Program-made: the position numbers and the translations under genes
Shown here: piece after piece, positions 542 through 57,708 of the stretch
How the letters are laid out: every line of letters begins with the position of its first letter
Numbering within the stretch: position 1 is the stretch's first letter
NCBI GenBank assembly: GCA_964016885.1
Contig: OZ024741.1
Location: 397,482,001-397,546,000, forward strand
DNA from: Eledone cirrhosa
Taxonomy: Eukaryota
Length of the DNA: 64,000 nucleotides
Reading direction: 5' to 3'
The notes under the pieces: generated by a model
Seen by the model: the letters and a program-made list of their open reading frames with translations, nothing else
Told to the model about the DNA's origin: nothing
The model's database searches: none

Positions 542-702
542 ATACGTTTAAATAGCTTGACAAATTGAACATTGTGGCAGGCAAAATCCCACACACAATA
601 CCAAAGTAACGAAAGAACTAACAGGTTGCTTTCGTTACTTTGGTATTGTGTGTGGGATTTTGCCTGCCACAATGTTCAATTTGTCAAGCTATTTAAACGT
701 AT
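542..702. repeat. Perfect ~74-bp inverted repeat (fold-back) with 13-nt loop, abutting (TA)n
   Basis: 542-615 (atacgtttaaatagc...taacgaaag) is the reverse complement of 629-702. Confidence 0.95.
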
Positions 703-1131
703 GTTATTACTCTAAGGATCTACCTTGTCGAGTGCTTTGCTAACTCATTCATATAGTAGGCCAAATTTGCTTGCACACCGCCAGAGATTTGATTTTACTA
801 AGTATCCAATTTTATATATATATATATATATATATATATATAAATTATGTCCTTAGAATCATTTGATAAGATGTATACTCAATTTCCTCTCCCAATTACC
901 ATAATCAACCACACAAAAAAACAATTAAACCAGGCTATAAGATTAAAAGGCACCTGTGAAGAAACAATAGATAAATAAACGATACCCATTTATTCGCGAT
1001 CAACAGCCATAGAATATTTACCCATCATTTCAATAGCACGTGGAAATCGATTAAATATATCGTCAACCATACACAATTAGGTATAAAATTAAAGTTATAA
1101 GAAAAAATGCATATACACATACCAGGATTAC

Positions 1132-1212
1132 GTTTCTACCCTTAGGGTTTCGTTCCCTTTCGGAAATATCCTATCAAGGATAAATTCTCGAGCTTCGAAC
1201 TCATCAGGAAAC
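1132..1212 (-). ncRNA. Type I hammerhead ribozyme, canonical core, long stem II
   Basis: Minus strand: gtttc-CTGATGA-gttc...gaac-GAAA-ccc(taa)ggg-TA-gaaac; all three stems pair. Confidence 0.9.
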
Positions 1213-1538
1213 AAACTCACTTGGACACAGATTTTTCTTAAATGATCCCCGCCAGAAACGAATTCAAAATGGCTAAGAACTGTGACGTGGCAGTGATCAA
1301 GTCAGAAAGAATGTGATTGGTGCCTACGGCTAGTAGGCTGGTTGCTAGAAACCGCAGCCTAATATTGCCCTCAATTGCATCTCAACCTTATGGGAGATTA
1401 TATATATATATATATGCAGAGGTTATATTTAATTTGTTGGGATTCAACAAGCTTAAAAATTTTATAACTAATATAAAGCACTCAACAGATAAGTGGAGTA
1501 AATATTCAATATATTAAATATATTAACTTATTATTAAT

Positions 1539-1717
1539 TGGCAGTATCGGTAGAGAGTCGGACGCCATGCTTTCCAGCATAGATACGTTTCTTTACGGTC
1601 TGAGTTCAAATCCCGCCGAGGTTAACTTTGCCTTTCATCCTTACGGGGTCGATAAAATAAAGTACCAGTAATGTACTGGGTAATTGCTGGCCTTGTGCCA
1701 AAAGTAGAAACAATTAT
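1539..1717 (+). mobile_element. tRNA-derived SINE, family A
   Basis: A-box-like TGGCAGTATCGGTAGAG, B-box GAGTTCAAATCC, body gaggttaactttgcctttcatcc..., tail gaaacaattat; about 10 copies in the window. Confidence 0.85.
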
Positions 1718-2195
1718 AAATATTATCAATATATTAACTTATAATTATAAATATTATAATAGCATAATGAACGTTATATTTACGTTCTGAGTATTTATCC
1801 ATGTAAAACTTATTTCTTAGTTCGCTTCGCTTCTCTTCACTATCACTATGCATAATCTTGTCTTTCCTTCTTCTCTTTTTCTCTTTCCCTTTTCTTCTCT
1901 CTCCCTTTCACTATTCTTTCTTCCTCTCTTTCAATATTTTTTCTCTCTCTCCCTCTCAATATTTTTTCTCTCTCCCTCTCAATATTTTCCCCTCTCCCTT
2001 TTACATCTCCTTTCTTCCAACAGTTTAATTTAAATAAACCGTTGTTTTTTTCAATTTTTCTAACACCCATTTACATACTCACTCATAACTTTGTATCACC
2101 CTCAATAAAATATTATCTCCACTATCAAGGGAACTTCAGCCGTTAAGGTTGTCTTTTTTCCGGGTATGTCAATATTTATTTATAAAACAAATCTG

Positions 2196-2261
2196 TATTT
2201 TATCTGATGAAAGCGCACCATAATTTGCCTTGGTTGCCCTTGAAATATATATAATAAAATA
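2196..2261 (+). ncRNA. Type I hammerhead ribozyme, palindromic stem III
   Basis: tattttat-CTGATGA-aagcgcacca...tggttgccctt-GAAA-tatata-TA-ataaaata; perfect 8-bp stem I. Confidence 0.85.
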
Positions 2262-54892: not shown

Positions 54893-55128
54893 CCACTGCT
54901 TCCTAATAAGCCAGTTATATTGTGAGAGAGTGTAATATAACCACAATACCAGACACCAGACAATATAGTGAAATATCTGTGAATTCAATTAATCACATAT
55001 TCCATTTAATTACACATTTTCTAATAACGAGACTATGTGATCTAATATATGCATATATCTGGCTTGTGTGTTGTGTTCCGGGGCAAAACACTTCATTGCT
55101 TCAGTATATTCAACTGGTATATATATAT

Positions 55129-55707
55129 ATAAGTTGAAATAAAATGAAAACGAAATTTCATTTCTCACTCTTAGTACGGCACTTACTTAAATGTAAGTAT
55201 GTATGTATACGTACATACATATATGTATACAGACGTACAGTAGCATGCATATATATATATATATATATACATACAGGTACACATACATATATGCACGTAT
55301 CAGTTTAGCGGACGCTTATTATAACGCCGCTTTGTTCGTTTGTAAACAAACTGAACAGCCTGAATTTATGCCGTACGGTGTTAAGGCAACCACGTCACCT
55401 TTTTGTTCAACACTGACACAGGAACGATGTACTAGTTTCAAGCTTGTTAGCTATCATCAGCACCGTATACCCTTCTGCCAGATAGTTGAACGTTCGAAAG
55501 TATATACTTTCCTTATGAAAATTAACGGCTGAGCAGCCTAATTTGCATATCGAGTGAGTTAAGTCGGTCAGGCATACCGAAAACGATAAGTTGAAATAAA
55601 ATGAAAACAAAATTTCATTTCTCACTCTTAGTACGGCACTTACTTAAATGTAAGTATGTATGTATACGTACATACATATATGTATACAGACGTACAGTAG
55701 CATGCAT
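55129..55707 (-). mobile_element. Non-coding HHR element: ~457-bp unit + ~120-bp direct repeat
   Basis: 55129-55250 repeats at 55586-55707; part recurs at 63920-63980. Confidence 0.72.
55424..55466 (-). ncRNA. Minimal hammerhead ribozyme
   Basis: acggtg-CTGATGA-t-agct(aaca)agct-t-GAAA-ctag-TA-catcgt. Confidence 0.8.
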
Positions 55708-56934
55708 TACACCCTACCTAATCATTTTTCTTAAGTAAATTAAATATCATCCAGCATGAATTACCTACCCCTGCATATTAACTCTCTAAAAAGGGAAATC
55801 ATATCAAACTCCTGTCCACCATTTGCCTCCATCATGGATCAACTAAGCACTCTTGCTATATTAACACATTTTGATCTGCTTATCTTCAAGAACTATGCCT
55901 GTAAATAACATTATTTTTTCTTTCACATTGACTTATTATGCTCCACATTTTTTTCTTTTTTCTTTTCACTTCATAAACCTTGTTTGTAAATTTGTAAATA
56001 ACATTATTCTTTCTGCACCATTTCTTTAACATGTCCAACACCACCATTCTACACCAATACATATTATCATTTGATAATGCATAAAAATGCTGAAACCGGT
56101 AATAGACAATTATTAAATATATAAATAAATAAATAAATGCCATTGTTAATTAATAAATAAGTCAACTAATACCTTAACACTTCACACAAAGTAAAATATT
56201 TCGTTTTAATCATTTTCTAACCCAGAAAAAAGAGAGAAAGATATAAAAAGGAAAAAAATATATTTTTCTTCCTAATAATCGTCTTTTTCTCCGTTTTCAT
56301 ATATATATCTGTGTATATATATATGTTGTGAGAGAGAGAGAGAGAGAGAGAGAGAGAGAGAGAGAGAGAGAGAGAGAGAGAGAGAGAGTGTGTGTGTGTG
56401 TGTACCTGTACGTGTGTGTGTGTGCCTCTGTGTGTATGTGTCTGTGTGTGCCTGTGTGTATATGTGTGTGTGTCTGTGTGTGTGTATGTGTGTGCGTGAG
56501 CGTGTGTGTATACATGTATGTGTGTACGTATGTGTGTGTGCCTGTGTGTGTGCGTGTGTGCCTCTGTGTGTTTGTGTGTGTAGGTGCCTCTGTGTGTGTG
56601 TGTATGTGTATATGTGCCTGTGTGTATGTGTATGTGTGTGCGTGTGTGTATATATGTCTGTATGTGTGTTTGTGTGTATGTGTGAGTGTTTTTACGTGTG
56701 TGTGTGTGTGTGTGTGTGTGTGTGTGTGTGAGTGTGAGTGTGAGTGTGTGTGTTAAACCTTGGCAATGAAAATAACAGCTGAGGTATATTGACTATTTGA
56801 TTAAAGATTTTCCATTCACAGTGAAAAACAGAAAGACCCTGTTTATTGTTATAATAGTACTGTGTTCTGATCATACATAGGGACATATATATATACATAT
56901 ATATATACATGTATATATATATATGTATATGTAT

Positions 56935-57462
56935 GACCCAGAAAAACCTGGGACGACTTGATAAATTTCGACCTCACACACTTACACCTCTCCAAGACAA
57001 TGTCACTGGACCGAGATATTTGGCGATACACAGTAATACAGAAGACCCGCCTTGCCTAAGTACAAAGCGAAACCTACAGTCAGTAGGCACCTCTAACAAA
57101 AATACAACCCTGTCCCACTACCCCCACCCCATCCACACCACCCCTTCCGATGTGAAGTTATGTTGGTCCCACAACATCCAGTCCGAAACTAATGAGGTCG
57201 TGTAGGTGTCACGACAAAAAAACACACAGTCCACGCTGTAATGTGGCCGTGTAGGTAACACGGTAAAAACCTCCCAGTCCACACTGTAAACGTGATTGGT
57301 GTTAGGAAGGGCATCCCGCTATAGAAAACCCGCCAGACAGTCCTATACGAGCAGGACAACCAATCTTGCCTCAAGTGGGAAAACTCCCGTCCAAACCCAT
57401 GCAAGCGTGGAAGATGGACGTTAAACGATGATGATGATGATGATGATGATGATGATGATGAT
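56935..57462 (+). mobile_element. RTE LINE 3' end with (GAT)n tail
   Basis: Reverse-complement homolog of 60418-60937. Confidence 0.85.
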
Positions 57463-57503
57463 ATATATATATATATATATATATATATATATATATATAT
57501 ACA

Positions 57504-57708
57504 CAACAAAGGAATTGTGGTAAGGAACCAGATGGACCATAACGCACCAGAGTACTCAATACTTAGGGTAGTAGAGTGGGAAATAGGAAAAAGTGTGACC
57601 CCGACGGCAGAGCTCAAGCCGTTTCGACGGCTATTTCTAGAATAGCCGTCCAGAAATAGCCGTCCAAACGGCTTGAGCTCCGCCGTCGGGGTTGCACTTT
57701 TTCCTATA
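57504..57708 (-). mobile_element. Truncated U3-A8 HHR family copy with fold-back
   Basis: 57583-57638 / 57652-57708 inverted; matches 43635-43772. Confidence 0.85.

Follow-up and report, generated by a model that had tools for sequence, protein, structure and literature searches.

Head-to-head inverted PLE copies in Eledone cirrhosa pair two fixed TA-word ends, a probable result of twin target-primed reverse transcription

Introduction

How does a retroelement come to carry an inverted duplicate of its own sequence, and why does this duplicate end at a TA word that fuses into a (TA)n tract? The question is raised by a stretch of 64,000 nucleotides in the genome of Eledone cirrhosa (GCA_964016885.1, contig OZ024741.1, positions 397,482,001 to 397,546,000), hereafter called the window, whose own numbering is used below. 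A sequence-only reading had listed nine such arms, ascribed them to Penelope-like elements (PLEs) and proposed a reproducible integration step, either fold-back of the cDNA followed by joining at a TA word, or priming of the second strand from the nicked (TA)n, at an internal TATA word. Head-to-head 5'-truncated inverted copies, palindromic junctions, partial tandem pLTRs, a one-sided tail and insertion into (TA)n are common to the PLEs described by Craig et al. 2021 (PMC8557442), Arkhipova et al. 2013 (PMC3846280) and Schostak et al. 2008 (PMC2377424), papers that, like the others cited here, are drawn on in part. The inverted copies, the tails and the preference for (TA)n are already-known PLE traits, and Craig et al. 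count the formation of tandem and inverted repeats and the microsatellite bias among the undefined features of the PLE cycle (PMC8557442).

Element families in the window

Self-BLAST recovered inverted pairs at 542-702, 6914-7040, 17185-17323, 29726-30627, 30670-31127, 31983-32752/36181-36950, 42502-42773/43423-43694 and 57583-57707; the arm at 3615-3632 is below self-BLAST length and was inspected directly in the sequence. Seven of the nine arms do end in a TA word of 3-6 bp fused to (TA)n, the microhomology with the flank being 3 bp at 542, 6914, 42503 and 57708, 4 bp at 31126, 5 bp at 36948 and 6 bp at 30627 (Table 1). The other two have to be set aside. At 17185-17323 the supposed terminal TATATAT is internal element sequence, 17324-17421 is colinear with related copies in alignment and the arm continues to 17456; since it passes through the word, there is no (TA)n junction there. 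The piece at 3615-3632 is 17 bp with an overlap of just 2 bp, and none of 29 other family B copies has such an arm. Some arm lengths also had to be revised: the arm of 270 bp at 42503 is a piece of 920 bp, to which the 650-bp "spacer" belongs, the arm at 31126 measures about 380 bp and not 70, and the 13-nt "loop" within 542-702 is element sequence borne by the arm.

Table 1. Pieces of PLE families and related features in the window
Feature	Position	Strand	Remarks
Family A site-2 piece, inverted arm	545..628	-	ends AAACG-TAT into (TA)n 505-544; begins 13 nt further 5' than partner
Family A site-1 piece, 109-nt tail	629..811	+	enters (TA)n 813-842; without linked ORF
17-bp inverted piece at 5' end of family B copy (3422-3614, minus)	3615..3632	+	isolated
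Family E copy, C-terminal GIY-YIG, Neptune-type linker	4730..6620	+	site-2 end, no inverted partner
Family F, subfamily F1 site-2 piece	6917..6974	-	ends CC-TAT into (TA)n
Family F1 site-1 piece, 79-nt tail	6980..7119	+	5-nt insert at junction
Inverted arm of older H-related copy (body 16557-17254, minus)	17258..17456	+	crosses TATATAT at 17321
Family E site-1 piece, 33-nt tail	29694..30185	-	into (TA)n 29628-29692
Family E site-2 piece	30218..30627	+	ends CCA-ATATAT; TATA-like word 30404, Inr-like A 30435
Family G site-1 piece, short tail	30644..30742	-	
Family G site-2 piece	30745..31126	+	ends TTC-ATAT; ~300 nt further 5' than partner
Family H near-full PLE, Hydra-type by motifs	31822..36180	-	3' pLTR with 161-nt tail
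Family H 832-codon open frame	33501-35999	-	inside 31822..36180
Family H partial upstream pLTR	36001-36180	-	inside 31822..36180
Family H site-2 piece, 770 bp	36181..36950	+	ends CTC-ATATA into (TA)n; 1 mismatch against downstream copy
Family F2 site-2 piece, 920 bp	42502..43421	-	ends CC-TAT; 649 nt further 5' than partner
Family F2 site-1 piece, tail	43423..43773	+	TATA-like word 43603, Inr-like A 43634, site 2 at 43694
Family F2 site-1 piece	57505..57640	-	9-nt locally templated insert at junction
Family F2 site-2 piece	57648..57707	+	ends CC-TAT into (TA)n 57705-57774

The insertions have the structure expected of PLEs, with an inverted 5'-truncated copy and a tail at one end. Judged by their motifs, families H and F are Hydra-type PLEs. 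They have a single ORF in an element of about 3 kb, with the RT followed by a C-terminal GIY-YIG-like EN, and agree with the Hydra clade, the C-terminal EN+ PLEs of PMC8557442, in motifs and in their insertion into (TA)n. The open frame of H carries YRDD and VIY...YVG motifs, together with ADKT, RWR, CNCRANRTC and CNLC...E...N...CQH, which match the DKT, RWK-type, CxCX5C linker and CxxC/CxH features, with no evident CCHH; a family F copy aligns to residues 17-830 of H at 39.5% identity. Searches of Pfam and of PDB sequences with the H protein gave no match, and its nearest named homologues are hypothetical cephalopod proteins. Family E is tentatively assigned to the Neptune type on its C-terminal GIY-YIG part (Pfam GIY-YIG at 4621-5349), which is linked to E copies and has upstream of it CDRPNCGIC, in agreement with a CX2-5CxxC linker.

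Two fixed ends, paired one of each

In each of these families the 3' end is fixed at one of two places, site 1, which has a tail of 33-161 nt, and site 2, which has none. Of the 201 TA-joined 3' ends of family F, 197 fall at the two sites (117 and 80). TAT is present at both, and the tail end shows the same 3-bp TAT overlap. The claim that arm ends are enriched for TA words was tested in 1.26 Mb on all 34 asymmetric clusters from a de novo arm scan filtered against simple repeats, and it held: 21 of the 34 have at least 3 bp of TA microhomology, where a null of random breakpoints gives 11.5% (22.6% with the best phase chosen) and none of 20,000 simulations matched what was observed. A subset of 23 clusters gave 18. 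Long arms pass 6-51 other TA words, many of them better, yet end at one site; the "internal TATA" of the sequence-only reading is one fixed site per family and not any TATA. Pieces 779-1728 nt long also end at site 2, and the site is used without a close partner by the family E copy at 4730-6620 and by three other pieces.

The two sites are moreover combined in a regular way. In unbiased blocks totalling 1.26 Mb, 19 of 22 head-to-head pairs join site 1 to site 2, three involve another end and none joins like with like (P = 2e-6 against free choice). Among candidate pairs, the combination is found in 20 of the 27 from family F selected by their tails, in 9 of the 13 from H and in 14 of the 20 from E, most sets apart from the unbiased blocks being best-hit selections and four of the E "pairs" being matches to CA repeats. 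A tail search for F1, in which common words were skipped, returned nothing. Two cases of site 1 with site 1 were seen, L196 and the tail-to-tail L240/L253.

It could be argued that the hairpins have been inherited from a few master copies, or that they are chimeras of the assembly or the library. Three junction strings do recur in F, and the single loci are known from the assembly; one raw-read run yielded no reads on the stretch, and run X7 none on the F stretch. The other strings differ (54 of 57 pairs are distinct), junctions and flanks vary across chromosomes, and arms diverge from their bodies by 6.5% on average. The three copies ending in "cctat" (6914, 42503 and 57708) are likewise independent, with different flanks, different junctions and two subfamilies among them. 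In addition, the same ends and strand switches recur in contigs from other runs. In the contigs of one independent run, 210 ends stop at site 2 and continue into (AT)n, 54 loose ends lie at the Inr-like A, and five strand-switch joints occur; four of these start at 43634-43636 and lead to a point 16-33 nt beyond site 2, and the fifth starts from 43649. We regard inheritance or artefact as extremely improbable, and the proposal of a reproducible integration step of PLE origin, repeated in independent events, is supported.

Promoter-like words at the 5' ends

The 5' ends cluster as well. In both F and E they gather at an Inr-like A that has a TATA-like word upstream, at -31, and of 13 informative ends 9 have a G just before this A (P = 0.009). 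The 5' peak is found also in copies without arms. It counts against reading these words as a promoter that no comparable peak was seen in families H and A, and that none of four ORF-bearing F copies has an upstream pLTR starting at the Inr.

Hammerhead cleavage was considered as another origin of the 5' ends and rejected: although the predicted cut is close to the start of three F arms, in H the ends are 1-5 nt upstream of it. When the window and three pLTR stretches were scanned with Rfam, repeat-driven noise was obtained, with no hammerhead among the matches listed, and, in difference to the Hydra clade, the hammerhead cores and helices of H and F look variant when judged by eye (fold z-score -0.44).

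Geometry of arm and partner

The relative extent of the two pieces was measured in 62 clean pairs, a set that omits family G, in which tandem monomers blur positions. The 5' ends lie less than 40 nt apart, with near-full overlap, in 46 pairs; the arm outreaches its partner on the 5' side by 40 nt or more in 12 and lies inside the body by at least 40 nt in 4, and only 6 bodies come to an end no more than 30 nt from site 2. Four of the seven confirmed loci of the window (542, 31126, 36948 and 42503) have an arm holding sequence 5' of the point where the partner stops.

If the first cDNA folded back and copied itself, the copy being cut or stopped at site 2 by the element protein (endonuclease resolution at the tail boundary) and TA-joined to (TA)n, the arm should be a subset of that cDNA, which it is not in the 12 pairs and the four window loci just mentioned. 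Such a process would account for the 46 near-symmetric pairs and the 4 arms within the body, for private variants common to arm and body, for templated junction inserts that resemble snap-back synthesis, and for the window H arm, which agrees with the downstream pLTR at one diagnostic base. It is also in line with Craig et al., who attribute the tail to EN-mediated resolution (PMC8557442), and with the D. virilis EN, which requires the tail for cleavage (cited in PMC11167929). It cannot, however, produce arms with sequence missing from the partner, non-overlapping pairs or site-2 ends without a partner, and it leaves the 5' peak in arm-less copies without a reason. The many TA words passed by long arms do not suit it either. 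As a general mechanism the fold-back followed by TA-word joining is thus not upheld, and we consider it unlikely. It is a point against twin priming that the near-full overlaps need strand displacement or a second RNA, and that fold-back gives the same outcome.

Containment of the arm in the body is equally what one would predict if an antisense template primed itself, as Arkhipova et al. 2013 suggested for palindromes arranged head to head (PMC3846280), or if an intermediate that was already a hairpin or double-stranded were integrated. Palindromic junctions are common and oppositely oriented promoter motifs have been reported (PMC3846280), both of which would suit antisense self-priming, but it does not predict that there are two TA-word ends, each fixed, and that a pair has one of each, and this origin seems very unlikely to us.

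The kinship of arm and body bears on whether two RNAs or two insertions were involved. Arms are nearer to their own body than to permuted bodies in F2 (0.062 against 0.080, 0 of 5000 shuffles), and the resemblance is seen in F1 as well (P = 0.04). Arm and body are cleanly of the same subfamily in 49 of 59 pairs, with private variants in common, variants that, as a point against twin priming, could also stem from gene conversion between arms. The inner junctions show microhomology of at least 2 bp in 11 of 25 cases (null 15%, P = 5e-4), and most of them lack a TA run. Two RNAs with two complexes at one break, or two back-to-back insertions in one (TA)n tract, would make full overlap of arm and body trivial and would suit the pair L009, whose arm is dissimilar to its body, as well as the two pairs of site 1 with site 1; two-transcript insertions of L1 are known (PMC11702581). 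The scarcity of TA runs at inner junctions, the strict pairing of one of each in the unbiased set and the shared subfamilies and private variants all speak against it, and we find it hardly probable, although a dimer may hold two RNAs of the same locus, which would be a form of the explanation that we prefer.

A model of twin priming

That explanation, which the sequence comparisons make probable in our view, is that the head-to-head pairs arise by twin target-primed reverse transcription from the two fixed sites, with the two cDNAs joined end to end. The GIY-YIG domain would nick both strands of the (TA)n target, and each 3'-OH would then pair over 3-6 bp with the TA word of site 1 or of site 2. 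Perhaps as a dimer, the RT would extend both ends, mostly on one RNA or on RNA from one source locus, the first cDNA would be displaced where the two overlap, and microhomology-mediated end joining by the host may seal the inner junction. Two separate start points on the RNA, primed by the two cut strands, would thus explain the inverted repeats of PLEs. The earlier suggestion of priming by nicked (TA)n at an internal TATA came near to this, but the geometry demands that sense RNA is primed, giving a second cDNA and not second-strand synthesis. The near-perfect hairpins of F and E likely reflect both cDNAs running off the same RNA 5' end, at a putative internal pLTR promoter.

More tentatively, the double priming may be programmed, so that one RNP, perhaps a dimer, assigns the two strands to site 1 and site 2 of a single RNA via the TA words. 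One step would then yield inverted pLTRs, the one-sided tail and the palindromic junctions in the distant Hydra-type and Neptune-type clades alike, and the many 140-bp hairpins would have formed by run-off at the capped 5' end of the pLTR transcript.

Relation to known systems

The PLE descriptions cited above, in the parts used here, mention neither a fixed tail-less site with TA microhomology nor an obligate pairing of one of each, and neither the obligate pairing of site 1 with site 2 nor a twin-priming model for PLE inversions was found in the titles and abstract starts of the literature searched. Tails are about 30 to 161 nt here against 30-40 in known PLEs, for which self-priming or EN resolution has been proposed where we favour twin priming.

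The closest experimental system is the Poseidon element PAc of Anolis, which in vitro cleaves and extends both target strands (Frangieh et al. 2024, PMC11167929). In PAc, as in the families here, the RT starts at two internal sites that delimit the tail, and the target is AT-rich, but its strands share start sites, whereas here site 1 is paired with site 2. The start site of the anole PLE is non-homologous to the cut DNA, in contrast to the TAT overlap and, more generally, the 3-6 bp of target overlap at both sites of our families, a difference that counts against twin priming. The PAc account, in the text used here, makes no link to inverted repeats. Twin priming in L1 (Ostertag and Kazazian 2001, as cited in PMC11702581) has in common with the present case that the second nicked strand primes internally by microhomology between target and internal site, and that an inverted 5' piece results with an end-joined junction. 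In L1 the internal site varies and the pieces abut with deletions or duplications of 1-10 bp (PMC11702581); here it has a fixed position, some 30-161 nt away from the first, and the inner breakpoints do not abut in this way, most bodies overlapping the arm fully.

The genomic counts give a specific rule, two fixed TA-word starts used one of each and joined by microhomology, which lends itself to checking with the in vitro PLE system that is already at hand. The rule would help to annotate such hairpins as PLE pieces, and not as MITEs or microRNAs. If it is true, it explains where very many of the short palindromes of this genome come from, in which family F copies, by a rough estimate, number about 40-50 per Mb of the sample.

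The elements and their arms

The window, from a 3.0 Gb host genome, is a mosaic of retroelement pieces separated by (TA)n tracts, and its longest ORF has hypothetical proteins of cephalopods as its closest named homologues. The head-to-head structure of its Penelope-like elements (PLEs), in which an inverted arm faces a body, is real, genome-wide and mostly already known; the gross structure is not new, since inverted 5' copies, a one-end tail and (TA)n targets are PLE traits described in PMC8557442, PMC3846280 and PMC2377424. Family H has an 832-codon RT plus GIY-YIG-like frame, whose motifs match the Hydra clade list of Craig et al. 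(PMC8557442), and its protein is 39.5% identical to that of family F. Family E has its GIY-YIG at the C-terminus with a linker of Neptune type, and family G is a tandem monomer of ~657 nt; no linked ORF was found among copies of families A and G. The uninterrupted frame listed below has Asn-rich inserts that resemble the N-rich inserts of Adineta Penelopes, and its family is young, since the 3' ends of its genomic copies share 95-100% identity.

Arm-bearing families and other features of the window
Feature	Position	Strand	Remark
Family A	at 545		arm-bearing
Family B	at 3422		arm-bearing
Family D	at 16557		arm-bearing
Family E	at 29694		arm-bearing
Family F	6914, 42503, 57583		arm-bearing
Family G	at 30644		arm-bearing
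Family H	at 31822		arm-bearing
Hydra-type PLE frame	33501-35999	-	uninterrupted; 2 Asn-rich inserts vs related frame 27094-28089
Second Hydra-type fragment	27094-29627		hairpin at 27985-28308
Inverted pair in that fragment	28287-28626/29240-29579		340 bp, faces across insert; right arm fused to 51-bp family E tail piece, 29577-29627
Inverted repeat pair	56935-57501/60373-60939		separate repeat family; ~490 bp, 95%, ends (GAT)n/(ATC)n, encloses ~3 kb
PLE-type RT/GIY-YIG fragments	39980-41313, 45863-47872, 12715-13114		additional; one inserted into LINE-like RT region
Decayed non-LTR element	17519-22816	-	zf-RVT and RVT_1 matches
Decayed non-LTR element	9923-12287	+
Tandem array	14436-15115		62-bp unit, 11 copies
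Short interspersed repeat	1537-1720, 13802-13985, 39270-39440, 50927-51043		dispersed, several copies, both orientations
Further palindromes	8085-8220, 6693-6760, 2817-2979		arm end without TA tract
Family G monomers	30644-31126, 49792-50027		657-nt tandem; also at loci L339-L367
Family B hammerhead-like motif	3422-3614, 2580-2806		minimal, by eye
Family F hammerhead-like fold	43576-43694		variant core
Family H hammerhead-like fold	31990-32070	-	variant core

The sequence-only reading had listed nine inverted pairs, eight of which were recovered by self-comparison, and the ninth, a 17-bp piece, was read directly. Its claim that the arms end at a TA word fused to (TA)n stood for seven of them (ends 542, 6914, 30627, 31126, 36948, 42503 and 57708, with overlaps of 3, 3, 6, 4, 5, 3 and 3 bp) and failed for two: the TATATAT at 17185-17323 belongs to the element itself, as related copies can be aligned through the following 98 bp and the arm extends to 17456, and the arm at 3615-3632 has an overlap of only 2 bp and occurs in 0 of 29 other family B loci. 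The predicted enrichment of breakpoints at TA words was borne out in a scan for TA-to-TA units bearing an inverted end, which covered 1.26 Mb: the window with its two 100-kb flanks, and ten blocks of 100 kb from other chromosomes. An overlap of at least 3 bp was found in 21 of 34 asymmetric clusters, against 11.5% expected if breakpoints fell at random in these sequences (22.6% with best phase), and none of 20,000 simulations equalled it.

Two fixed sites and their pairing

The end rule is one of two fixed sites, both TA words: site 1, the 3' end with the tail, and site 2, a tail-less 3' end upstream of it. A TA tract ends 201 of 234 family F pieces, 117 at site 1, 80 at site 2 and 4 elsewhere; many of the other 33 are truncated by other inserts or at locus edges. 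Site 2 of this family is CCTAT, 79 nt upstream of site 1, where the target overlap is likewise TAT, as seen from tandem copies, and the arm ends at site 2 in 26/30 loci of an apex-selected set read by eye. The arm ends at TCATAT in family H (161 nt from the element end), at CCAATATAT in family E (33 nt from it), at TTCATAT in family G and at AAACGTAT in family A. The arms keep to these fixed sites whichever TA word comes first or is best, since long family F arms bypass 6-51 other TA words, one of them of 9 bp, and long family H arms bypass 1-9 words of at least 5 bp.

Among head-to-head family F pairs in unbiased blocks, 19/22 join site 1 to site 2, none like with like and three involve another end (P = 2e-6 for one-of-each pairing). 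The tail-selected sets agree (F 20/27, H 9/13, E 14/20, G 8/14), with one family F pair of two site 1 ends. Arm and body are of the same subfamily, cleanly so, in 49/59 pairs, and are more alike than permuted pairs of that subfamily, which suggests that both come from a single RNA or a single source locus, although gene conversion could add to the likeness; the arm at locus L009 is discordant with its body. That two independent RNAs or insertions supplied the halves is thus improbable.

Inheritance or artefact is the least credible source of the arms. Contigs of the independent run X1 hold 210 loose ends at family F site 2 with (AT)n, 54 at the Inr base and 5 strand-switch joints, and the family H site-2 junction is present in contigs of X1 and X5. 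Judged across families, not locus by locus, an artefact is unlikely, because these contigs show the same ends and the arms diverge from their bodies by 6.5% on average.

How the arms may form

We find it probable that both target strands are nicked, that each primes at one TA-word site and that microhomology-mediated repair then joins the ends of the two cDNAs. The nicked (TA)n strands would start reverse transcription on the element RNA, one at each site, with strand displacement where the cDNAs overlap. The nicking and priming steps gain support from an anole PLE, in which, according to PMC11167929, both strands are cleaved and extended and synthesis begins at two sites bounding the tail. 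Antisense self-priming, raised in PMC3846280, has little probability beside this.

The geometry of 62 site 1 to site 2 pairs from families F, H and E bears on fold-back of the cDNA, which had been proposed as the source of the arms. The 5' ends lie within 40 nt of each other in 46; the arm stays inside its partner by at least 40 nt in 4, but extends 5' beyond it by 40 nt or more in 12, and 4/7 window arms carry sequence absent from the partner at that end. Such sequence cannot be present in a strand templated by the first cDNA, and fold-back followed by cutting at site 2 is unlikely, if less so than the other alternatives. Family H evidence on arm origin is mixed: in the window the body ends 36 nt beyond the upstream site 2, and the arm agrees with the downstream pLTR at the sole diagnostic base. 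Two pairs lack any arm-body overlap.

The inner junctions are varied, with 54/57 distinct strings in family F, which contain short microhomologies, runs of A/T or inserts copied from local sequence. Microhomology of at least 2 bp was found in 11/25 longer pairs, a count that leaves out one palindromic and one unmeasured case (null 15%, P = 5e-4). A/T runs occur at both inner ends of family F hairpins at locus L017 and in block C2w (93267-93463), which suggests untemplated or slipped additions at cDNA ends. The two-strand priming proposed here would work like L1 twin priming, but these PLE pairs do not show the abutting breakpoints that PMC11702581 gives for the latter. In published literature open without subscription, supplements aside, we did not find an equally sharp rule.

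5' ends and hammerhead-like folds

The 5' ends of family F gather at one base (32/114, a peak owed partly to query selection), and in family E 17/64 pieces, arm-less copies too, start in a single 10-nt bin. In both families the peak falls on the A in an Inr-like word, judged by the usual consensus, and a TATA-like word lies at -31, so that this base would be a candidate promoter start. Neat hairpins would then result where both cDNAs reach the end of an RNA that begins there. Cap copying is expected to leave a G before the first base, and a G precedes the A at 9/13 informative ends. Four ORF-bearing family F copies, however, begin elsewhere, and families H and A have no sharp 5' peak; the alternative is RT stopping at RNA structure.

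The folds of families F and H lie just upstream of site 2, with predicted cuts ~20 and ~46 nt away, and neither has a match in Rfam. In family G the monomer junction falls at site 2, the tail occurs only on the final unit, and one half of a hammerhead core is present, so that the array appears retrozyme-like. The family B copy at 3422 ends 38 nt before the normal 3' terminus, and the predicted cleavage site is where its 17-bp inverted piece stops.
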